From: Klebsiella phage Magnus | Reading direction: 5' to 3' (one strand) | Sequence record: NC_049462.1 | Length of the DNA: 64,000 nucleotides | Shown: in pieces, positions 8-54,274 of the stretch | Position numbering within the stretch: the first letter of the stretch is position 1 | Layout of the letters: each line of letters starts with the position of its first letter | Notes under the pieces: generated by a model | What the model was told of the DNA's origin: nothing | What the model saw: the letters and a program-made list of their open reading frames with translations, nothing else | The model's database searches: none | Program-made: the position numbers and the translations under genes

Positions 8-2764
8 TTATGCCCCGAGAATACGTTTTGAAATAGCGGCGAAGAAACCCTCTTTGTCTTCTTCAATCGGGTTCTGAGCCACAGGCGTATACGTCGCCAT
101 CAGATGTTTTAACAAGTTATGGCAATCGACGCGATACCGGTTATTTTTCTTCTGGGACTGAGAAATAGAACGTGTCCAGCTGATTTCGCAATAACCGTTG
201 TTTTTCAGCAATTCATTGATACTGGAGAACAATTGAATCATACGCGCATGCCCATGGCGGTATTGGTCAAAGTTCTCTTTGATACTAACACGGAGATTTA
301 ATTTTTCCATCGCCTCGTTAAGATCCTTGACACCAGATAATCCTTTCTTGTTCTTACTGATTACCTTCAGATAATCCCATTCAGTTTCCGGGATTAATTC
401 AATATTTTTCTTATCCAGCTGGGATATTTTATCCTTCAGATAAGCAAACTTTTCTGGGATACCTTCGTGAGATTTGGCCAGAAGTGACTCCGCATACGGG
501 ATACGGTTTATGATACAACGAGTTTGCTTTCTTAATGCTAACAGTTCCCGGGCATTCTTAGATTTGAAATACGGCATATGGCGTTTCAACAACATTTCAA
601 ATACCGCATCAATTGGCACGAACACTTCCGGGAACTTTTTCATCATTGGAACCGATTTACGGCGGGCAAGGATGACTTTCTTATGGAAGTTCATGAACTC
701 AAATATTTTGTTCCCCTCATCGTCCATAGGAGTGTTGTGCATACATTCCAAAATGCTCCGGGCAACGTATTCATTAACACGTTTTCCACGAATATCATGG
801 ATGCTGTTAGTTCCTGATATCTCAATATAAACAATTTGCTTACCAGAATCAATGATACTGGAGATATCTTCAGCAGATAATTCTCTATCCTTATAGAAAC
901 TGAAACGGAACCCTTCGTATTCAAACATCCCTGGATCTTTTTCGACCGGGGGCTTCACATACTGCATATCATGCATGAAATAAACTTCACTTGGCACGAG
1001 AATTTCCGAAATAACTTCATAAAACTTATCGGCAAATACCAAATGGTCAATAGTTGTCTCTTGTTTACCAACCCAAGATTCAAAATAGGATTGAAGCTCT
1101 TCGTGATTCTTGTATGCGCCTTTATGGTTTTGCAATAAATTGCGATTGGTCAGTAAAGAATCATTGGGCTTAACAACGATAACAACATCATGATTATTTC
1201 GCGCCGTCCTGATTTTCAGATTACGGGCGCGGCTGGAGTTATCGATAATAATAGCAACAGATTTTTTCTCACCAACCCAACCATAAACGTCATTCAGCAT
1301 GAGTGAATCCTTGGATTCATAATATCCGGCATCCCAATATATTTCAAGATAATAAGGATTCCCGGCAGTACGGAATGGAGCGTCAACATCGATGTTACGT
1401 TCTATATCAGGGGTGCCGTTGTAAACATATTTCCCTTTGTAGAAGCGGGTATCAGCCGGGAAGTCCCGCTCCATCATTTTGCGGAAACCGCTACCGAACA
1501 TGTTGGTGAATTCGTCTTTCTTCATATACAACGCCAGCGGGCCTTTGCTGGCCGCCAGGTTGAGTTCGGAAATCTTTTCCTGCATAATTTTATTCGCCAC
1601 TTTCTTGAACTGGCGATTCAGGGTTTCGCGAGTGTACTCATCGTAAGACAAGTCTTCACGGGATGGTGGGACATTAAGCTCACCGAGTTCAAAGAAGGTA
1701 TAGGACGTCGGGAACTTTTCCAGAATAGAAGAAACGTCTTGTTCCAGTTGTTCCAGATCAATAGGGTATGACACCCCGCCCATGACCGCATAGTGGGTAT
1801 TCCCCGTCCCCTTCGGCTGGATATAGGTATTCCCCACCCGGTTGTTAAAACTGATGTCTTCCCAATCGAAGTTGTATGAGTGATTCGTGACTTTCGGGCG
1901 CTCGTTGGGCTTCATAACTTTGCCAAGACGGATCAGCTCTTCTTCAAACGCACGGAAACGACTGTTCTTGACCGGGACTTTCACAGACAAACCATTCCAT
2001 TCATCTGTGTCTTCCGGCGCGGGTTCGCGGGTTTCTACGTTTTTAGTCACCAGGTCAACAGTTGGGATACGGTTCCCGTTCAGATACATCAGGAAGCGAT
2101 AGATCTTCCCTTCATAGCGGGATTCAACGGTGAATGAATCCGACACAGAGAAAGGTGATTTGGAACCCAGACCGAACGCGCCGATCTGGCCATCATCGTC
2201 TTCTTTGGTACTGTTGAACAAAGTGGTATAAAGTCCAGGGGAACGGATGATTTCGCCATCTTGGGTTTTAAAGACCAATTGTCCACCATAATACGAAGAG
2301 AAATCGGGTACGCCCAGGACTTCAGAACCTTCTGGGATTTCGTCTTCTTTGACGACCATGTTGCCCGACAGAAGCACTTCATCTTCACGGGCCAAAATAG
2401 GTTCACCCATGATCTGTTCCAGCGAAAGGCCGATACCCCAGTCTTTGATTTCCAGCCATGGCTCGTAATCGTCCGGGAGATGGACTTCTACGGGAATGTT
2501 AGAAGGAGCCAGATACTTACTGTGCAGTTGGGGCATCGGGGACAGAGAGGCATAATGAGACGGCATCCAGCGCTGTAAACGGTTACGCATGTTGTGAGCG
2601 TCAATCGCATTACAAACGGTCTCACGAAGCGCCGCCGCTTCTTTATAACGATAAAGGCTGGAGAACAACGTTTCAAATAACTTATCGGTCATTTTGACGT
2701 TGAACACATTACCAGATATAGATGATGAAGAGCGGACAAAGTGCTCTGACTTGCGCATTTTCAT
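8..2764 (-). CDS. Large (918 aa) protein with an N-terminal GHKL/Bergerat-fold ATPase domain (Hsp90/MORC/TopoVI-B-like); function unknown
   Basis: Translated ORF has an N-box 'ETVCNAIDAHNMRN' (ExxxNAxDA), a G1-box 'IKDWGIGLS' (DxGxG) and a G2-box 'IGAFGLGSKSPFSVS' (compare Hsp90 'IGQFGVGFYSAF'). No Toprim or topoisomerase motifs downstream. Stop at 8-10. Confidence 0.5.
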   Translation of the reverse strand: MKMRKSEHFVRSSSSISGNVFNVKMTDKLFETLFSSLYRYKEAAALRETVCNAIDAHNMRNRLQRWMPSHYASLSPMPQLHSKYLAPSNIPVEVHLPDDYEPWLEIKDWGIGLSLEQIMGEPILAREDEVLLSGNMVVKEDEIPEGSEVLGVPDFSSYYGGQLVFKTQDGEIIRSPGLYTTLFNSTKEDDDGQIGAFGLGSKSPFSVSDSFTVESRYEGKIYRFLMYLNGNRIPTVDLVTKNVETREPAPEDTDEWNGLSVKVPVKNSRFRAFEEELIRLGKVMKPNERPKVTNHSYNFDWEDISFNNRVGNTYIQPKGTGNTHYAVMGGVSYPIDLEQLEQDVSSILEKFPTSYTFFELGELNVPPSREDLSYDEYTRETLNRQFKKVANKIMQEKISELNLAASKGPLALYMKKDEFTNMFGSGFRKMMERDFPADTRFYKGKYVYNGTPDIERNIDVDAPFRTAGNPYYLEIYWDAGYYESKDSLMLNDVYGWVGEKKSVAIIIDNSSRARNLKIRTARNNHDVVIVVKPNDSLLTNRNLLQNHKGAYKNHEELQSYFESWVGKQETTIDHLVFADKFYEVISEILVPSEVYFMHDMQYVKPPVEKDPGMFEYEGFRFSFYKDRELSAEDISSIIDSGKQIVYIEISGTNSIHDIRGKRVNEYVARSILECMHNTPMDDEGNKIFEFMNFHKKVILARRKSVPMMKKFPEVFVPIDAVFEMLLKRHMPYFKSKNARELLALRKQTRCIINRIPYAESLLAKSHEGIPEKFAYLKDKISQLDKKNIELIPETEWDYLKVISKNKKGLSGVKDLNEAMEKLNLRVSIKENFDQYRHGHARMIQLFSSINELLKNNGYCEISWTRSISQSQKKNNRYRVDCHNLLKHLMATYTPVAQNPIEEDKEGFFAAISKRILGA

Positions 2765-2825
2765 AACGAAGAAGTCCTATCAGTTTCAAAGGGATTACAC
2801 AGAGGTATGATACGTGAAGGTCGTT

Positions 2826-2855
2826 CAATTGAAAAAGCCCCTGAGAAGGGGCTTT
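2826..2855 (-). terminator. Rho-independent terminator-like hairpin after gene 2864..3205
   Basis: Stem AAAGCCCC/GGGGCTTT with a 6-nt loop; on the minus strand it is followed by UUCAAUUG. Confidence 0.45.
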
Positions 2856-2863
2856 AGTTCATA

Positions 2864-3205
2864 TTATCCAATGAGTGATGCTTTGAAGTCGAAGGTGGGA
2901 CGGGTAGCGCCCGGCTCCAGCACTTCTTCCAGATAACCGACATATTGTTTGACAACTACAGTCGGCTCGGCACGATTGGGCTTGGTTGCACTCAGATCCA
3001 GAAGGCTGGAAGTCACCTGCTCTACAACAGTGCGCTTGATCTCAAAATGGTAGCGGCTCCCGAAGGCGGCGATCTCGACTTCATTAATTTTGAAGTCAGA
3101 CAATTCACTGCTGTTCAACGTACCGATATTCAATTGTGAGCGCAGATGCTCAACAATGTTAGAATAAATGTACTGCGGCGTGATCAGCTGTTCAATAGAA
3201 CTCAT
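2864..3205 (-). CDS. hypothetical protein (113 aa)
   Basis: ORF with an AGGAT RBS 8 nt upstream of the ATG, in a co-directional gene array. Confidence 0.5.
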   Translation of the reverse strand: MSSIEQLITPQYIYSNIVEHLRSQLNIGTLNSSELSDFKINEVEIAAFGSRYHFEIKRTVVEQVTSSLLDLSATKPNRAEPTVVVKQYVGYLEEVLEPGATRPTFDFKASLIG

Positions 3206-3212
3206 AATATAT

Positions 3213-3383
3213 CCTCTAAATTTCGGGTTCAGGTTTACTTAATCGAGCGAGTTCGGCTCGAAGATACAGAATTTCGTCGGCCATCTGTTTCCCTTCACCA
3301 AACATGACATGACACTTTACCTTCCTCGGCTCCCCTTCAGATATTTCGAGGAGCCGTTCTTCTGTTAAGGTGTCATCACTCAT
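3213..3383 (-). CDS. small hypothetical protein (56 aa)
   Basis: Hand-translated ORF 'MSDDTLTEERLLEISEGEP...' that fills the gap between neighbouring genes; it abuts the downstream RBS. Confidence 0.3.
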
Positions 3384-3598
3384 TTACTCTTCCTTTTGTT
3401 CTTTCCATGCGTTTTGGCTTTCTTCGGTCGTTTCACCGATGGTCGACCATGGCCTGGCGTTCCCGGCCCTGAATTGTTGGAATACCAAATATCATCACCG
3501 CGATGACGTGATTCCTGATAACTACGCGCCAATGCTTGTTCTGCACTGATAACAGCACCAGCCATAGCAATGGCAACTAATGCCTTTTTGGAACCCAT
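3380..3598 (-). CDS. small secreted, basic protein (72 aa)
   Basis: N-terminal signal-peptide-like 'MGSKKALVAIAMAGAVISAEQALA' and a Lys/Arg-rich C-terminus. Confidence 0.4.
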   Translation of the reverse strand: MGSKKALVAIAMAGAVISAEQALARSYQESRHRGDDIWYSNNSGPGTPGHGRPSVKRPKKAKTHGKNKRKSK

Positions 3599-4251
3599 TA
3601 TAATTCTCCTTTGGCGGCATAGGACAATGCCTTGGCGATCATCACAGCCAACTCCATAGAACCATAGTCAAAATCACGTTCCACCAATGCTCTGATTTCA
3701 TCACGAGATTGGACTTCTGGACAATTTTTGCTCTGCCGACGTTCTTCCTGATCGATTAGATCGCGAAGCATCAGACCAGTAAAAGAATATTCGTCAAAGT
3801 TTTCCAGATATTCCTGGATACCCGATTTCGGTGGATTGGTTTGTTTGACTTCTGGTATTTTAGACTCAGACGTTTTCATGGAACTTCTGAGTTTATAGAT
3901 CGTGGTGCTGGCAACTTCTCGCCCTTTGTTCAAGGCAGTGAAGTCGACATTTTGACCCCAAGCGTTCTTCACCGGATTTGAACAACATTGACCGAACAAA
4001 TCAGACCAACCAGCATCCAGTGCCAGGAGCGATTGTACCAACGCCTCATAAGTTGGTTCATCAGATTGGCTCATTTCATTACATTGGGCAACGATGTTAT
4101 CTACTGCCCAAAGTGGTTTTAACAATTCCAATAATATTTCGGATTGTTCTTGGGACAATGTTAAGCGATTCTTCAGGGATATAATGAACTTGTCATATGC
4201 TTTCACAGTATCGACAAGCTGCTGGTAAGTCGGTTTGGTCTGCGAGTTCAT
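3598..4251 (-). CDS. hypothetical protein (217 aa)
   Basis: ORF tightly packed with its neighbours (4-nt overlap). Confidence 0.5.
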   Translation of the reverse strand: MNSQTKPTYQQLVDTVKAYDKFIISLKNRLTLSQEQSEILLELLKPLWAVDNIVAQCNEMSQSDEPTYEALVQSLLALDAGWSDLFGQCCSNPVKNAWGQNVDFTALNKGREVASTTIYKLRSSMKTSESKIPEVKQTNPPKSGIQEYLENFDEYSFTGLMLRDLIDQEERRQSKNCPEVQSRDEIRALVERDFDYGSMELAVMIAKALSYAAKGEL

Positions 4252-47314: not shown

Positions 47315-48013
47315 ATGAGACCTTTTCAGAATTATTTTTACCATGGTTCACTCCTGAAATATATCCATGTGTTCAACGCTATTATGTCTGACGTTCAGGT
47401 GAAAACCGAGCGCGGTCTTATGAAAGTCCCGTTACACATGGCTATTGGTCGTCGTAATGATCTGAACCGAAATACCCCGGCGAATGCATTACCATTTGCA
47501 ACTATGTCTTTCGGTCAATTTGAAATCAATAAGCAGGTAACAAATTCGTATCACAACAAATTGGCGACTAAAACTGCGACGTCTAAGCAACGAATTCCAA
47601 TCATCATCGACTTTGAATACAATGTGCGTACAAAGAAGATGAATGAAATGCTTCAGATCCTCGAACAGATTTATTCTGTTTACACCCCTTCAATAGATTG
47701 CCAGATAAAGGACAACGAAACGCTCAAGCAGGATCAGGTTGTGAAGATCCAATTGGTGAGCCATACGATGTCAGATAACTGGGAAGGGGATGCAGCTGAA
47801 TCTCCTCATGTCGATTGTAATTTCATGTTTCAGCTTCATGGTGCTATCTATGGCTGGGATTATTGGGTTGATGACGGTTCCGGTACTGGTGATCCAAACG
47901 TTATCAAGGAAATAATTATCGAAATGTCTACTGATTTGAATACACCGTGGACGGAATTGCCTCTTTGGTTTACTGTTGACAAAGACGGCGTCCACCATCC
48001 AGAGGATGATTGA
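47315..48013 (+). CDS. 15: tail sheath stabilizer/completion protein, T4 gp15-like
   Basis: 'YFYHGSLLKYIHVFNAIMSDVQVKTERGLMKVPL' matches T4 gp15 'YFYNSSFRRYATLMGDLFSNIQIKRQ...FIRVPI'. Confidence 0.7.
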   Translation: MRPFQNYFYHGSLLKYIHVFNAIMSDVQVKTERGLMKVPLHMAIGRRNDLNRNTPANALPFATMSFGQFEINKQVTNSYHNKLATKTATSKQRIPIIIDFEYNVRTKKMNEMLQILEQIYSVYTPSIDCQIKDNETLKQDQVVKIQLVSHTMSDNWEGDAAESPHVDCNFMFQLHGAIYGWDYWVDDGSGTGDPNVIKEIIIEMSTDLNTPWTELPLWFTVDKDGVHHPEDD

Positions 48014-48702
48014 TTATGTCTAATATGTCGGAACGTTTGTTACAGACCTTAGATGCTGTCTCAGCACGAGATGAGGTTGCTCAAGATGCGATGAAGAAAA
48101 CCGCATTGAAGCCCGGTGTTGATTATGATGAAGAAACGGGGGAGTGGTTAGGTGATCCCCCGGAAGGGTATCAAGGATTCGAGATGCCGCCATCATTGTC
48201 TGAAGTCGCGTCAAAAGAATCAAAAGTTCCTGAATACGAGGACACTGATGCCACGACTGACTACAAACGTATTCGTGACACCACATATGCTATGCAAGAA
48301 GCTACGATGTTCATGATGGGCAAGGCCGCTGAACTCGCCGCTTCTACAGAGGCTCCTCGTGCATTCAGCGTCTTCCGCGAGCTGGGTGAACTCATGCGTG
48401 GTCTCAATAAAGACCTGATGGAAAACCAGAAAACCATCAAGGATGTTACTCGCGACAAAGAGCCGCCGGGACAGACCACCGTTGAGGTTTCTGAAGATGA
48501 AAATGGAACGACTACAGTCAAAGTCGGCAAGACTGCTCGGTCGTCAAGAGATCTTCTTCAGATGATTGAGAAAGTTCGGCGTGACGCTGAGGCCAATCGA
48601 AATTCCCGTGTTAATCCTGACGAAGAAGTAATCGACGTTGCGGAAGAACCAAAACCGGAAGAGAAGTCAGAGGGTGAGGACAATGGCGAATCCGAAGCGT
48701 GA
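48010..48702 (+). CDS. 16: small terminase subunit, T4 gp16-like
   Basis: Position matches T4; 'YAMQEATMFMMGKAAELAAS' aligns with T4 gp16 '[20 protein letters not shown]'. Confidence 0.6.
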   Translation: MIMSNMSERLLQTLDAVSARDEVAQDAMKKTALKPGVDYDEETGEWLGDPPEGYQGFEMPPSLSEVASKESKVPEYEDTDATTDYKRIRDTTYAMQEATMFMMGKAAELAASTEAPRAFSVFRELGELMRGLNKDLMENQKTIKDVTRDKEPPGQTTVEVSEDENGTTTVKVGKTARSSRDLLQMIEKVRRDAEANRNSRVNPDEEVIDVAEEPKPEEKSEGEDNGESEA

Positions 48703-50893
48703 AGTCGAATATGCCCCGGTCAAGACGGGGTTTAAAATTGAAGACGTCAAATTGCGTATGGACCAAACGTTCATGCGCAAACCGACTGTGCGTGCTCCTC
48801 GTGTTGAATTAGTCCTTACTGATGAGCAGGAAGAAGAATATGTCAAGTGTGCTATGGACGCGCACTACTTCGCGGCGAATTATTACAAGATCACCACGAT
48901 TGACCATGGTTTCATCTTATTTGACATGCACGATTATCAGAAGCAGTTGTTCCATGATTTCCAGGATCATCGATTCAATGCTGTTGTGCAGGCTCGTCAG
49001 TCTGGTAAATGTGTTCGGGGCGACTCTGAAGTTTATGTTTACGATACTCTCAGCCAGGAAGAGTTCTCTATCACCATAGAGGAGCTTCACAGCCGCTTCG
49101 AAGACGTTAACCATGCAGAGCCGTTGAATACCATTGGCAAACACAATAAATTCGTAGATAGCCGCTTCGGCAAACGATACTTTGTACAGTCCGATAGTGG
49201 TTGGGTTCCGGTAATTGCTGCACACAAGACAAAAGAATACGCCGAGTATGTGGTCAAGACTGAAAGTGGCCGGACGATTCATGTCGCAGACGAACATCTA
49301 TTCTTTAATGAATATAATCGTGAGGTGTTCGCCAAAGATCTGGAAGCCGGGGATGCCATCATGACCCAGGATGGCCTTGAATGTATTTCTGAAATTTGGG
49401 AAACCGGTGAATCCCATCACATGTTTGACCTCCAGGTGAAATCATCTGAGCAGCGTTATTACACCAATGGGTTCCTGAGCCATAATACGACAGTGGTGGC
49501 GGCATTCCTTCTCTGGTATGCGATGTTCAACTCTGACAAAGAGATTGCGGTTCTGGCGAACAAAGAGAAACAGGCAATTGAAATCCTGGATCGTATTCGT
49601 AAAGCATACCAGGATATGCCATTCTTCGTTCAGCAAGGTTGTGAGAAGTTCGGTTCGACTCTGATTGAATTCGAGAACGGTTCGAAGATATTCGCATACG
49701 CGACTTCTTCGGACTCCATCCGTGGTCGTTCTGTATCTCTACTGTATGTTGACGAAGTCGCGTTCATTGAAAACGACTTTGAATTTTGGGAATCAACTTT
49801 CCCGGCGATCGCCCAGGCAGAGACTTCGAAGTGTATCCTCACCAGTACTCCCAAAGGTCAGCGCGGGCTGTTTTACGACATCGTCACGAAGGCGAACCCA
49901 GAACATCCTCAATACAACGACTTCAATCTTACGGAAGTTCCTTGGTACAGGGTTCCGGCGTACACCAAAGACCCGAATTGGGAATCCAAACAACGTGCCA
50001 AACTTGGCGACGCTCGTTTCGATCAGGAATTCGGTATCAAGTTCCGTGGTTCTGTCGGTTCATTAATACCGTCGAAATGTCTAGACAAGATGACATCCAA
50101 GTTGTATCAGGAGCCGAATGAGTTCACCAAAATCTACAAACCCTTTGACAAAACCAGAACATATTTTGGTATTGCGGATACAGGCAAAGGGGTTGAGGGG
50201 GACTACTCTGTGCTGACCATATTGGACATCACGGAATATCCTCATACGATTGCAGCCAAATATCGGAACAACACGATACCGCCAATGATGTATGCATACA
50301 CGATTGCCGATATGTGTACTCAATACGGTGAATGCCCTGTGCTTGTAGAGACTAACAATGATGTTGGTGGTCAGGTGATCACAATCCTGTATCAAGAAAT
50401 TGAATATCCGGAAATCGTGTTTACATCAACGGACAATAAAGGTACTGGTAAGAAGATCGGCGGGCGTCGTCCTGAACCAGGGATCAACACCAACAAGAAA
50501 GTTCGCTCTATCGGTTGTGCTAACCTGAAAGCACTTATCGAAAGAGAGATGTTGGTAATCGAAGACCAGGATACAATTGATGAACTCAGTACGTTCGTGT
50601 TTACTGGAACCCGCTATGAGGCCGATCAGGGTTGTCACGACGACTGCGTTATGCCACTTGTTCTCTATTCATGGGCTGTAAAACAGGAATGGTTCAGTGA
50701 CCTGACTGATACCAGCATTTCGCGAGATATGCGCGGACGTATGAATGCGATGGAGCAACACCAAGTCCTCCCGTTTGGGGGCAAATTTACTGGTGATACC
50801 CCTCATGAAGTCCAGCATATGCCGGGCTTCGGGGGTGTGAATGTATTTGATGAACGTTCTGGGATGTCAATGGAAGAGTGGTTCAAGAACTGA
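48683..50893 (+). CDS. 17: large terminase subunit, T4 gp17-like, interrupted by a mini-intein in the Walker-A motif
   Basis: The N-extein ends 'AVVQARQSGK' and the C-extein resumes 'TTVVAAFLLWYAMFNSDKEIAVLANK', matching the T4 gp17 P-loop 'SAARQLGKTTVVAIFLAHF'. Downstream similarity covers the whole length ('GCHDDCVMPLVLYSW' vs T4 'GYHDDLVMSLVIFGW'). Confidence 0.9.
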   Translation: MANPKREVEYAPVKTGFKIEDVKLRMDQTFMRKPTVRAPRVELVLTDEQEEEYVKCAMDAHYFAANYYKITTIDHGFILFDMHDYQKQLFHDFQDHRFNAVVQARQSGKCVRGDSEVYVYDTLSQEEFSITIEELHSRFEDVNHAEPLNTIGKHNKFVDSRFGKRYFVQSDSGWVPVIAAHKTKEYAEYVVKTESGRTIHVADEHLFFNEYNREVFAKDLEAGDAIMTQDGLECISEIWETGESHHMFDLQVKSSEQRYYTNGFLSHNTTVVAAFLLWYAMFNSDKEIAVLANKEKQAIEILDRIRKAYQDMPFFVQQGCEKFGSTLIEFENGSKIFAYATSSDSIRGRSVSLLYVDEVAFIENDFEFWESTFPAIAQAETSKCILTSTPKGQRGLFYDIVTKANPEHPQYNDFNLTEVPWYRVPAYTKDPNWESKQRAKLGDARFDQEFGIKFRGSVGSLIPSKCLDKMTSKLYQEPNEFTKIYKPFDKTRTYFGIADTGKGVEGDYSVLTILDITEYPHTIAAKYRNNTIPPMMYAYTIADMCTQYGECPVLVETNNDVGGQVITILYQEIEYPEIVFTSTDNKGTGKKIGGRRPEPGINTNKKVRSIGCANLKALIEREMLVIEDQDTIDELSTFVFTGTRYEADQGCHDDCVMPLVLYSWAVKQEWFSDLTDTSISRDMRGRMNAMEQHQVLPFGGKFTGDTPHEVQHMPGFGGVNVFDERSGMSMEEWFKN
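49010..49486 (+). mobile_element. 159-aa mini-intein (Hint domain, no endonuclease domain) inserted between K and T of the terminase P-loop GKT
   Basis: Starts with Cys ('CVRGDSEV') and ends with His-Asn ('FLSHN') followed by Thr; block-B-like 'GRTIHVADEHLF' and block-F-like 'HHMFDLQV'. Removing it restores a T4-length terminase (592 vs 610 aa). Confidence 0.8.
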
Positions 50894-50904: not shown

Positions 50905-50945
50905 CTTTCAAATTGAGCGAAACTCTACCGAGAAGGAATAATGTT

Positions 50946-52841
50946 ATGGCAACTACAAGTTTCAGCGTTGCGCCGTCTGTACAGTGGACCGAGCGCGATG
51001 CCACGCTTCAGACGTCTCCGTCCGTTGTTGTTCAGGGCGCGTCTGCTGGTAAATTCCAATGGGGTGAAGTAGAATTACCCGTGTTGGTTACTAGCGGTGA
51101 GACTGGTCTGGTGAAGAAATTCTTCAAACCGAATGATGATACCGCGATCGACTTTCTGGTCATTGCTGACTTTATGTCGTATAGTTCTGCTGCATGGGTG
51201 ACCCGTATCGTCGGCCCTACTGCCAAGAACGCCGTGACTAAAGGTCAGAGCGCTATCCTCATCAAAAACAAACTGGACTTTGAGACCGCAAGTCCGTCGG
51301 CTTCTATCACCTGGACTGGTCGTTATCCCGGTTCTCTGGGCAACGATATCGCCGTTAACATCTGTGATGCAGCGTCATTCCCGACCTGGGAATTCCGTAA
51401 CAACTTTGCCTATGCTCCTCAGGCTGGCGAATTCCACGTTGTTATTGTGGACAAAGTTGGCCGTATCACCGATTCTTCCGGTGCTGTCGGTCAGGTAGAT
51501 CGTATTTCTATTTCTGGTACTGCTACCGCCGCTGGCGCCATTACAGTAGCAGGTGAATCTGTTGCATATCTGCAGACGGATACTCCAGCAACTCTGGCGG
51601 CTAAAATCGGCCTGGAGATGGAAGCGCTGACTGATGTTTATTCGAGCGTTGTTGTGAAATCGAATACCGTCATTCTGACCCACAAAGCTATCGGCCCGCA
51701 GCCCGTGACTGCCGTGGTTCCTGATGCTAATGGCCTGACTGGTACTGCGATCATCACCACTGTTGGCGCATCCGGTACGATCATCGAGAAATATGAACTG
51801 ATGCAGAATACCCAAGGCGCGAAAAAGTCTGATGGTGCTAATGCTTACTTCAAAGACGTGATCAACAACACTTCGAATTGGGTTTACACCTTCACTAATG
51901 CCCTGGCGGCAGGTGTAGTTGAACTCGAAGGTGGCGTTGATGATTACGACGTCAACCGTGTCGCTGCTATCGAAGCCCTGAACAACGCCGAAGCATACGA
52001 TGCTAAACCTGTGTTCGCATACTGTGAAGAACTGATCGAGCAGCAGGCTATCATCGACCTGTCGACTAACCGTAAAGACACAGTGTCCTTCGTGTCGCCG
52101 CTGCGTGATGTTGTAGTCGGCAACCGTGGTCGTGAAATGGATGATGTTGTGGCTTGGCGTGAAAGCCTGGTGCGCGATTCTTCCTATTTCTTTATGGATG
52201 ACAACTGGGCATACGTTTACGACAAGTACAACGACAAAATGCGCTGGATCCCGGCGTGTGGCGGTACTGCAGGTCTGTGGGCGCGTACTATTGAGATTGC
52301 TGGTATCTATAAGTCCCCGGCGTTCCATAACCGTGGCAAATACAACAATTACAACCGTATGGCGTGGTCTGCGTCTTCTGATGAACGTGCTGTGCTGTAT
52401 CGCAACCAGATCAACAGCATCGTCACCTTCTCCACAGAAGGCATCGTGTTGTACGGTGATAAGACTGGCCTGACCCGCCCGTCGGCGTTCGATCGCATTA
52501 ACGTGCGCGGCCTGTTCATCATGGCTGAACAAAACATCGCTGCCATCGCCAAATACTATCTTGGTGAAAACAACGATGCGTTCACTCGCAGCCTGTTTAG
52601 CAACGCCGTTCGTCCTTATATCCGCCAGCTGGCCAACATGGGCGCGATCTATGACGGTAAGGTCAAGTGCGACGAAGACAACAACCCGGCAGAAGTTATC
52701 GCGGCAAACCAGATGGTTGCTGGTATCTGGTTGAAACCGGAATACAGCATAAATTGGGTGTATCTTGACTTTGCTGCAGTTCGACCGGACATGGAGTTCA
52801 GCGAAATCGAATCTGGCGGCGGCATAGTCGCAGCGTCCTAA
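50946..52841 (+). CDS. 18: tail sheath protein, T4 gp18-like (632 aa)
   Basis: 'YNDKMRWIPACGGTAGLWARTIE' and 'LYGDKTGLTRPSAFDRINVRGLF' match T4 gp18 'YNDVNRWVPLAADIAGLCARTDN' and 'LYGDKTATSVPSPFDRINVRRLF'. Confidence 0.9.
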   Translation: MATTSFSVAPSVQWTERDATLQTSPSVVVQGASAGKFQWGEVELPVLVTSGETGLVKKFFKPNDDTAIDFLVIADFMSYSSAAWVTRIVGPTAKNAVTKGQSAILIKNKLDFETASPSASITWTGRYPGSLGNDIAVNICDAASFPTWEFRNNFAYAPQAGEFHVVIVDKVGRITDSSGAVGQVDRISISGTATAAGAITVAGESVAYLQTDTPATLAAKIGLEMEALTDVYSSVVVKSNTVILTHKAIGPQPVTAVVPDANGLTGTAIITTVGASGTIIEKYELMQNTQGAKKSDGANAYFKDVINNTSNWVYTFTNALAAGVVELEGGVDDYDVNRVAAIEALNNAEAYDAKPVFAYCEELIEQQAIIDLSTNRKDTVSFVSPLRDVVVGNRGREMDDVVAWRESLVRDSSYFFMDDNWAYVYDKYNDKMRWIPACGGTAGLWARTIEIAGIYKSPAFHNRGKYNNYNRMAWSASSDERAVLYRNQINSIVTFSTEGIVLYGDKTGLTRPSAFDRINVRGLFIMAEQNIAAIAKYYLGENNDAFTRSLFSNAVRPYIRQLANMGAIYDGKVKCDEDNNPAEVIAANQMVAGIWLKPEYSINWVYLDFAAVRPDMEFSEIESGGGIVAAS

Positions 52842-53250: not shown

Positions 53251-53706
53251 ATGATATTTGCATACAAAATTGAAATGAATGCCAACAACATGGTCTATAT
53301 CGGTGTGACCAATGATCCGCAAAGGCGATATGAGCAACATTTGGCCAATGCATTTCAATATAATGTTGAAAGTGAATTGTATGATGCCATGCGCAAATAT
53401 GGGGCTTCTGCTTTTACTTTCGTGATTATTGCTCAAACCGATGAAGTCCACAAATGGGAATTGGAAAAGCAATTAATTGCTCAATATAATTCTTATGAAT
53501 TGGGCTACAACATGAATAAAGGCGGTAACGATGGAAGTCATCTGGTTGGTAAAGCTGCTGCTAAATTGACCTCCACTGGAGAACATATTGGTATGGTCTC
53601 ATTAATTGATCCACGTTGGGATCTCTGTGAGATTGAACCAGTACGGAACAATGTTGATCATGGCTTTGATCTCAGTAAATTGACGATCAAAAGATTAACA
53701 GACTAA
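53251..53706 (+). CDS. free-standing GIY-YIG homing endonuclease (151 aa)
   Basis: N-terminal 'MVYIGVTNDPQRRYEQH' (GIY-YIG core with a conserved Arg and Glu); inserted between the sheath and tube genes, which are adjacent in T4. Confidence 0.7.
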   Translation: MIFAYKIEMNANNMVYIGVTNDPQRRYEQHLANAFQYNVESELYDAMRKYGASAFTFVIIAQTDEVHKWELEKQLIAQYNSYELGYNMNKGGNDGSHLVGKAAAKLTSTGEHIGMVSLIDPRWDLCEIEPVRNNVDHGFDLSKLTIKRLTD

Positions 53707-53740: not shown

Positions 53741-54274
53741 ATGGCTACAGTAAATGAATTTCGCGCGGCCATGTCACGTGGGGGCGGCGTTCAACGTCAG
53801 CACCGCTGGCGTGTGACTGTAAACTTCCCGGCATTCGTAGCGGGTTCTGACACCATTCGTGACGTATCTCTGTTGGCTGTAACAACCAACACCCCGACAG
53901 GCCAGCTGGGTGAGATTCTCGTTCCGTGGGGTGGCCGTGAACTGCCGTTCCCTGGCGACCGTCGTTTTGAGGCTCTGCCTGTAACGTTCATCAACGTTGT
54001 AGACAACGCCCCGTACAACGCATTTGAAATCTGGCAGCAGTATATCAACGGCAGCAACAACAACCGTGCGTCTGCTAACCCAGATGATTATTTCCGTGAC
54101 ATCATCATGGAACTGCTGGATGCTAACGACAACGTCACCAAGACCTGGACGCTGCAGGGCGGCTGGCCTCAGAACCTCGGTCAGCTGGAACTGGATATGT
54201 CTGCTATGGACTCCTATACTCAGTTCACTGTTGACCTGCGTTACTTCCAGGCCATTTCGGACAAGTCTCTCTAA
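53741..54274 (+). CDS. 19: tail tube protein, T4 gp19-like
   Basis: 'TWTLQGGWPQNLGQLELDMSAMDSYTQFTVDLRY' matches T4 gp19 'EIEIKGLWPTNVGELQLDWDSNNEIQTFEVTLALDY'. Confidence 0.85.
   Translation: MATVNEFRAAMSRGGGVQRQHRWRVTVNFPAFVAGSDTIRDVSLLAVTTNTPTGQLGEILVPWGGRELPFPGDRRFEALPVTFINVVDNAPYNAFEIWQQYINGSNNNRASANPDDYFRDIIMELLDANDNVTKTWTLQGGWPQNLGQLELDMSAMDSYTQFTVDLRYFQAISDKSL

Follow-up and report, generated by a model that had tools for sequence, protein, structure and literature searches.

The window, that is, the whole stretch of 64,000 nucleotides of Klebsiella phage Magnus (NC_049462.1) analyzed here, carries a gene for the large terminase subunit (TerL) of the T4 gp17 type. Within it, 477 nt (49010-49486; like all terL features below, on the + strand) are inserted in frame between the lysine and the threonine of the Walker A motif, or P-loop (ARQSGK/TTVV). 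The 159-aa product of the insert (18.5 kDa) is very probably a functional class 1 mini-intein, with a HINT fold and without an endonuclease domain, as indicated by hidden Markov model matches, an AlphaFold2 model, Foldseek comparisons and empty sites in relatives. The coding sequence of the intein-containing precursor (48683-50893; 736 aa plus stop) was assigned by Pfam and by its match to T4 gp17. It consists of an N-extein of 109 aa (48683-49009), whose C-terminal end ARQSGK is the first half of Walker A and whose last residue is Lys109 (codon aaa, 49007-49009), of the insert, and of a C-extein of 468 aa plus stop (49487-50893), which begins with Thr+1 and comprises the remaining ATPase domain and the nuclease domain. 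The precursor thus reads ...NAVVQARQSGK, then, as the insert, CVRGDSEVYV...YYTNGFLSHN, and then TTVVAAFLLWYAMF.

A preliminary description of the locus had given the position and length of the insert, the cysteine following ARQSGK and the SHN preceding the threonine, all of which proved exact. It had also recognized the host gene as gp17-like and placed the insertion between Lys and Thr of Walker A. Both assignments held: when spliced in silico, the 577-aa protein matched the T4 gp17 structures 3ezk/3cpe over residues 28-519 (E 9e-77), and its Walker A aligned with that of T4 gp17 without a gap (QARQSGKTTVVAAFLLW in the window, LSRQLGKTTVVAIFLAH in T4). That splicing recreates the T4 P-loop was right as far as the motif is concerned, but not to the letter, as T4 reads SRQLGKTTVVA and the spliced protein ARQSGKTTVVA, neither being the proposed ARQLGKTTVVA. 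The 751-aa open reading frame (ORF) on which the description had been based, with ∼86 kDa for the precursor and ∼68 kDa for the spliced product, does exist (48638-50893, +), but it extends mechanically from a TTG at 48638, inside terS. Annotated homologues start instead at the equivalent of an in-frame ATG at 48683 that overlaps with the stop of terS. The 736-aa sequence beginning there is therefore the likelier coding sequence; it overlaps terS (48010-48702) by 20 nt, and from it a mass of 84.6 kDa is calculated for the precursor and one of 66.2 kDa for the spliced product.

Identity of the insert

To judge which residues of the insert are conserved, 13 homologous inserts with identities down to 32% were aligned. 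Invariant were C1, V2, K47, F48, D62, G64, T74, Y77, A93, D94, H96, F99, T119, G122, M138, D140, R149, T152, G154, L156, S157, H158, and N159, which include all canonical catalytic positions. Cys1 (codon tgt, 49010-49012), the predicted nucleophile for the N-S acyl shift, was moreover present in all 34 alleles carrying the insert in contiguous form. The core of block B is formed by Ala93-Asp94-Glu95-His96 (49286-49297; all but Glu95 invariant), with His96 encoded at 49295-49297. Block F has the core Met138-Phe-Asp140-Leu-Gln (49421-49435; Met138 and Asp140 invariant), which aligns with ‘liDieV’ of the gp41-1 intein and in which Asp140 occupies 49427-49429. The insert ends, in block G, on the invariant Ser157-His158-Asn159 (49478-49486), the last two residues being encoded by cat-aat (49481-49486) and Asn159 being the residue whose cyclization would release the intein. 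The adjoining Thr+1 (acg, 49487-49489) would serve twice, as the Walker A threonine and as the splice nucleophile, and is kept in all alleles, intein-bearing and intein-free alike.

When the insert was compared with solved structures using phmmer, it matched exclusively inteins (gp41-1, Pab CDC21-1, VidaL, and CatC). In these alignments, ‘VADEHLF’ fell on block B of gp41-1 (‘CSEEHLF’), ‘FDLQV’ on its block F, and the terminal HN on HN. AlphaFold2, run from the insert alignment, returned a single compact all-beta HINT domain, in which residues 23-43 form two short helices (mean predicted local distance difference test score, pLDDT, 93.8; predicted template modeling score, pTM, 0.87). Foldseek found 69 matches to this model in the PDB at E ≤ 0.001. 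The best 50 of the 69 were nearly all inteins (VidaL, RecA, gp41-1, DnaB, RadA, and others), led by VidaL (6vgv; E 6.7e-11; template modeling scores 0.76/0.83); the few others among these 50 were HINT domains of Hedgehog and bacterial intein-like (BIL) proteins, which ranked lower. In the model, the HINT fold uses up all 159 residues, a length within the ∼130-200 aa of mini-inteins, so that the insert is, as predicted, a Hint-only mini-intein. This agrees with the preliminary description, which had seen no room for a LAGLIDADG or HNH endonuclease; a Pfam scan of the insert likewise yielded HINT-type models only and detected no endonuclease family.

Several observations nevertheless weigh against a functional intein. 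The comparison with profile models, which the preliminary description had proposed, supported it only in part. NCBIfam TIGR01445 (intein_Nterm) scored 27.0 bits, above its cutoff of 24.5, but Pfam PF14890 (Intein_splicing) remained, with 34.2 bits (E 2.7e-8), slightly under its gathering cutoff of 35.8, PT-HINT and Hint were far under theirs, and the NCBIfam model of the intein C-terminus did not match the insert. In close homologues, PF14890 is listed in the precomputed Pfam annotation. The segment ‘TIHVADEH’ had been called block-B-like, but only its last histidine, His96, is the block B histidine, and the usual threonine of this block is replaced by Ala93. Ala93 is invariant in the family and was counted as a tolerated deviation from TxxH. 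Thr+1, too, is a rarer choice of the +1 nucleophile. Finally, the literature searched contained no splicing experiment on this or any other TerL intein of the Ackermannviridae.

Other types of HINT element were considered and rejected. A class 3 intein, which has no nucleophile at position 1 and instead uses the block F Cys of a WCT triad first, is incompatible with the presence of Cys1 and with position 4 of block F being Asp140 instead of Cys, the same two features by which the sequence classes the insert as a class 1 intein. The copy in the window is not naturally split, since 48683-50893 is a single unbroken ORF. A BIL or Hedgehog Hint domain, whose structures and profiles matched less well than those of inteins (see above), was dismissed because no motif of TerL is more conserved than the one that the insert interrupts and because Cys1, His-Asn, and Thr+1 are all present.

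Host gene, alleles, and history of the intein

On the exteins, Pfam recognized Terminase_6N (62.9 bits, E 4.5e-17) and, slightly below its cutoff, Terminase_6C (21.7 bits). Upstream of terL lie genes for a gp14-like neck protein and a gp15-like sheath stabilizer, followed by terS; downstream follow the genes for the tail sheath, a GIY-YIG protein, the tail tube, and the portal. Homology and gene order thus identify the host gene as a T4 gp17-type large terminase within a terS-terL packaging module. The phage is a Taipeivirus-like member of the Ackermannviridae. At the DNA level, its terL is 95-97% identical to that of the 0507-KN2-1 group of Klebsiella phages (Taipeivirus, family Ackermannviridae), FKP10 being closest (96.6%), and 60-80% identical to that of Kuttervirus, Limestonevirus, Agtrevirus, and Serratia phages. 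The free-standing GIY-YIG gene (53251-53706, +; 151 aa; Pfam GIY-YIG, E 7e-10) resembles those for homing endonucleases. It is situated 2.4 kb downstream of terL, between tail sheath (50913-52841) and tail tube (53741-54274), and phage 0507-KN2-1 has a GIY-YIG gene annotated at the equivalent position.

The intein itself is already known and is correctly re-identified here. Inteins were reported in TerL of phage Marshall in a genome announcement of 2013 (PMC3853055) and in the large terminase gene of phage Magnus in one of 2019 (PMC6763660). In addition, 477 nt at the corresponding position are annotated as an ‘intein’ mat_peptide in the GenBank record of Salmonella phage Mooltan, and for Maynard and Marshall, likewise Salmonella phages, the database has stand-alone ‘intein’ entries with 84% identity to the insert in the window. 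These elements of Ackermannviridae (Vi01-like phages: Marshall, Maynard, Mooltan, and Magnus) share the gene, the GK/T site, the length of 159 aa, and the catalytic residues, and they are orthologues, with identities to the window copy from 84% (Kuttervirus) to ∼99% (Klebsiella phages). The window copy deviates from other Taipeivirus copies by a few residues (two from that of 0507-KN2-1) and otherwise shows no substantive difference.

With only the intein as the query, a word-index search of proteins retrieved no more than two stand-alone entries; the full precursor was therefore used, and alleles were surveyed in its 120 best homologue clusters. Thirty-four of these carry a contiguous insert at the GK/T site. 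Relatives having the insert but lacking the catalytic Cys and Asn, which the preliminary description had named as evidence of a non-splicing domain, were not among them, as GK/C...HN/T was kept in 34 of 34. Intein-free alleles also occur. In five metagenomic clusters (P0015-P0019), the site is marked by a clean gap of 159 aa, with exteins being 73-84% identical to those in the window. A syntenic 118-kb phage contig (L009) has an empty site as well, at which the DNA reads ...CAGTCCGGTAAG and continues directly with ACGACTGTGGTGGC... Erwinia phage phiEa2809, a cultured member of the Ackermannviridae, has an exact empty site in a TerL of 580 aa, and several Vibrio phages likewise possess intein-free TerL alleles. 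In a neighbor-joining tree of the exteins, calculated without support values, intein-free alleles are interleaved with intein-bearing ones, which suggests more than one loss or gain of the intein in the TerL family. The full-length insert was found in ∼278 phage records (Salmonella, 164; Klebsiella, 43; Escherichia, 29; Dickeya, 19; and others), in TerL in all that were inspected, and it is nearly fixed in the enterobacterial Ackermannviridae.

Because synonymous divergence between genera is saturated, which renders the ratio of nonsynonymous to synonymous substitution rates (dN/dS) mostly unusable, codon differences were counted against the close relative 0507-KN2-1. The intein differs from it by 21 codons with synonymous changes only and two with amino acid changes, the C-extein by 64 and one, respectively. 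Against Mooltan, for which dS is already near saturation, dN/dS came roughly to 0.04 in the intein and to 0.03 in the C-extein. Judged from these sequence comparisons, the intein is under purifying selection as strong as that on the terminase exteins. Such selection is to be expected anyway, because any failure to splice would be lethal by depriving the phage of an essential ATPase. The identity of the intein to the window copy follows that of the exteins, with a steeper fall (intein/extein, 84/89% in Kuttervirus, 74/87% in the Dickeya phage, and 35/54% in Vibrio phage SD25). This pattern is best explained by an old element that has mostly been inherited vertically, is apparently kept functional by selection, and has occasionally been lost or gained by recombination; long residence is also suggested by the lack of a homing endonuclease domain and by a GC content (46.1%) that is the same as that of the host gene (exteins, 46.7%).

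Split and enlarged relatives

Among the homologues, the GK/T site is also occupied by inteins of other architecture. Split genes were seen in Delftia phage PhiW-14, Agrobacterium phage Atu_ph07, and ∼30 metagenomic clusters. A short N piece consists of the N-extein and ∼40 aa of intein; the other piece starts from M..LSD.V.RKF... and contains ∼122 aa of intein up to SHN/TT. In PhiW-14 (L004), the ORFs are located at 1925-2392 and 2441-4198, and the N piece reads ‘...ARQMGK/CVQGDTEI...’; in Atu_ph07 (L006), they are located at 1983-2354 and 2351-4174, and the N piece reads ‘...GRQLGK/SVHKST...’, that is, with Ser at position 1. In both phages, the first ORF comprises the N-extein and an intein N piece of ∼43-45 aa, and the second the long C piece to SHN/TT together with the C-extein. 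By sequence, their two-ORF TerL looks like an atypically split, trans-splicing intein; in the GenBank record of PhiW-14, the second ORF alone is annotated as TerL. C halves of split inteins account for ∼30 of the 120 best TerL clusters (P0040, P0046, P0051, P0058, and P0090-P0116), with SHN/TT at residue ∼122. These C pieces agree with the atypically split gp17 intein described by Dassa et al (2009), the C part of which has 122 residues. When mapped onto the window intein, the split falls at residue ∼46, immediately preceding the invariant Lys47-Phe48; the stretch in which it lies is the only one in the domain that varies in length and was modeled with lower confidence.

The window intein is similar in sequence to CatC (6dsl), from the GOS-TerL/AceL-TerL/Cat family of atypically split gp17/TerL inteins, and to VidaL (6vgv), which is also its best structural match, but unlike VidaL and the atypically split TerL inteins, it is contiguous and predicted to splice in cis. 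According to a review, the split inteins GOS-TerL and AceL-TerL use Cys+1; given this residue, they may occupy a TerL site other than GK/T.

At the GK/T site, inteins of 422-451 aa were found as well (P0080, P0081, P0085, and P0119). They contain ∼270-300 aa rich in Lys, Arg, Ser, and Gln and of low-complexity appearance, inserted at the split/variable position and not at the canonical endonuclease insertion point. Inspection of this stretch by eye revealed no recognizable endonuclease motif; it could reflect an embedded element that is read through or the use of another genetic code.

Some terminases carry additional inteins. Vibrio phage vB_VmeM-32 (L003, 1102-3216) has a second one in Walker B (‘IYVDE/CVSGDTMV...GIESHN/CAFIENF’), and its annotated terL coding sequence begins within the P-loop intein. 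In P0050, a second TerL intein is located at ‘IRGKS/CVVGDT...DVSHN/CALLYLDE’. Three proteins (P0078, which is the 738-aa ‘terminase large subunit’ of Vibrio phage VP-1, P0052, and P0077) have the P-loop intein and the ATPase domain and then depart from TerL at ‘...DQEYD/CLWGQSNIIL...’ into a GIY-YIG domain (precomputed PF01541). From its sequence, this arrangement looks like a fractured TerL gene in which the N piece of a second split intein is joined to, or lies beside, a homing endonuclease; the half of TerL with the nuclease would presumably be encoded downstream. In Dickeya phage phiDP23.1 (L008, 309-1187 and 1249-3384), a gene with a NUMOD3 motif, of homing endonuclease type, lies between terS and terL; its TerL, with an N-extein of 84 aa compared with 109 in the window, bears the name ‘pretoxin HINT domain protein’, a misnomer caused by the intein. 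The TerL region of Campylobacter phage vB_CcoM-IBB_35 (L005, 1958-5330) is annotated only as a misc_feature and is interrupted by two genes, one hypothetical and one for a MobE-like homing endonuclease. Outside TerL, a distant relative of the window intein (29% identity over the C-terminal 100 aa) was seen in a UvsX-like recombinase of Pseudomonas phage Deifobo (L007, 2426-3697), adjoining a homing endonuclease gene.

Predicted splicing of the terminase and its consequences

If the established class 1 mechanism applies, for which the residues alone are evident here, the starting point would be the translated 84.6-kDa precursor. Cys1, assisted by His96 of block B, would attack the carbonyl of Lys109 (N-S acyl shift), and the N-extein would then pass to the hydroxyl of Thr+1 by trans-esterification, with Asp140 of block F coordinating this step. 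Cyclization of Asn159 to a succinimide, assisted by His158, would free the 18.5-kDa intein, and an O-N shift would convert the junction into a normal Lys-Thr peptide bond. The resulting TerL would have 66.2 kDa and an intact P-loop. With GK parted from T by the intein, the precursor should neither bind nor hydrolyze ATP. It should, consequently, be inactive in packaging, which would make splicing obligatory for virion production; the strict dependence of packaging on splicing in this phage can thus be soundly inferred. Kelley et al (2016; PMC5050341) came to the same conclusion regarding the inactivity of TerL still containing an intein and considered assembly of the pentamer unlikely in its presence. 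Conversely, ∼278 cultured, plaque-forming phages carry the insert in the P-loop of this essential protein, so that it cannot be disabling, and from their viability, we infer that it is spliced.

Other inteins provide precedents for such an arrangement. Inteins are generally enriched in P-loops, and terminases are a common target (Novikova et al; PMC4760082), the position between K and T being described as a “classic” P-loop intein site in TerL (Kelley et al, 2016, mBio; PMC5050341). The mycobacteriophage TerL1-a inteins occupy this site in a Terminase_1 protein, that is, in another lineage of phages with another host, whereas the terminase in the window is a T4-type Terminase_6. Five TerL inteins from other sites (TerL1-b, -c, and -e, TerL6-f, and Pham3880-g) splice in a reporter, and the mycobacteriophage TerL inteins tested do so efficiently (PMC5050341); TerL1-b and -c carry active homing endonucleases, in contrast to the mini-intein in the window. 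With the characterized mini-inteins gp41-1, Npu DnaB, Mtu RecA mini, and Pho RadA (128-172 residues), the window intein shares the HINT fold, Cys1, the terminal Asn, and, by prediction, the class 1 mechanism; the RecA and RadA inteins likewise reside in P-loop ATPases. It differs from them by a sequence identity of only 13-22%, by Ala in place of Thr in block B, and by an extra helix pair and a variable linker at residues ∼23-46.

An insert that no longer splices, permanently retained in TerL as an exapted domain derived from a HINT ancestor, would account for the lack of a homing endonuclease and for the near fixation in the enterobacterial Ackermannviridae, both of which could suggest domestication, and also for the Pfam score slightly under the gathering threshold. 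Left in place, however, the insert would keep GK and T of Walker A apart, a state in which ATP could not be bound. Furthermore, all catalytic residues needed for splicing only (Cys1, His96, Asp140, His158, Asn159, and Thr+1) are invariant across deep divergence, and close relatives have working alleles without the intein, all of which renders this explanation very improbable. Even less credible, to the point of being practically negligible, is that the insert is an element of nucleic acid and not of protein, such as mobile DNA of the group I intron or another type, and is in frame by chance. T4-like phages do contain many introns and free-standing homing endonuclease genes, and the GIY-YIG gene at 53251-53706 is such a neighbor, but the ORF is unbroken and in frame, its translation is confidently predicted to be a HINT domain, synonymous changes are in large excess in its evolution, and its boundaries coincide with the catalytic residues of an intein.

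Splicing might also be conditional, responding to redox state, temperature, metal, or substrate. The intein would then act after translation as a switch or timer for the start of DNA packaging and be retained because it benefits the phage. P-loop inteins have been argued to be possibly selectively retained sensors (PMC4760082; PMC5050341), the purifying selection on this intein matches that on the exteins, and it persists across genera despite being devoid of an endonuclease. Selection of this kind would arise regardless of any such benefit, as stated above. In the alignment, no conserved second cysteine able to trap Cys1 in a disulfide was found, Cys125 not being conserved; intein-free alleles are interleaved in the extein tree as they would be for a dispensable passenger; and the TerL inteins tested so far splice rapidly and constitutively (PMC5050341). 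Conditional splicing is therefore considered unlikely. The same low expectation applies to the notion that the intein has been domesticated as a switch that delays or gates activation of the packaging ATPase, perhaps until the cell has reached a certain state late in infection, for which persistence and purifying selection, both expected anyway, are the sole support.

As a discovery, a class 1 mini-intein in TerL of phage Magnus has little weight, as it is the orthologue of an annotated intein and belongs to a well-described class, the P-loop inteins of phage terminases. It is of use for annotation, since many records of such proteins read ‘terminase large subunit’, ‘hypothetical protein’, or even, as above, ‘pretoxin HINT domain protein’, and since the N-terminal piece is unannotated in several relatives with split versions. 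TerL is also a frequent phylogenetic marker, so that the intein needs to be removed before alignment. For protein engineering, the element offers a compact relative of the atypically split TerL/VidaL-type inteins that is predicted to splice in cis. For the phage, biological interest would arise only if splicing proved to be conditional, in which case the intein would constitute a packaging switch.

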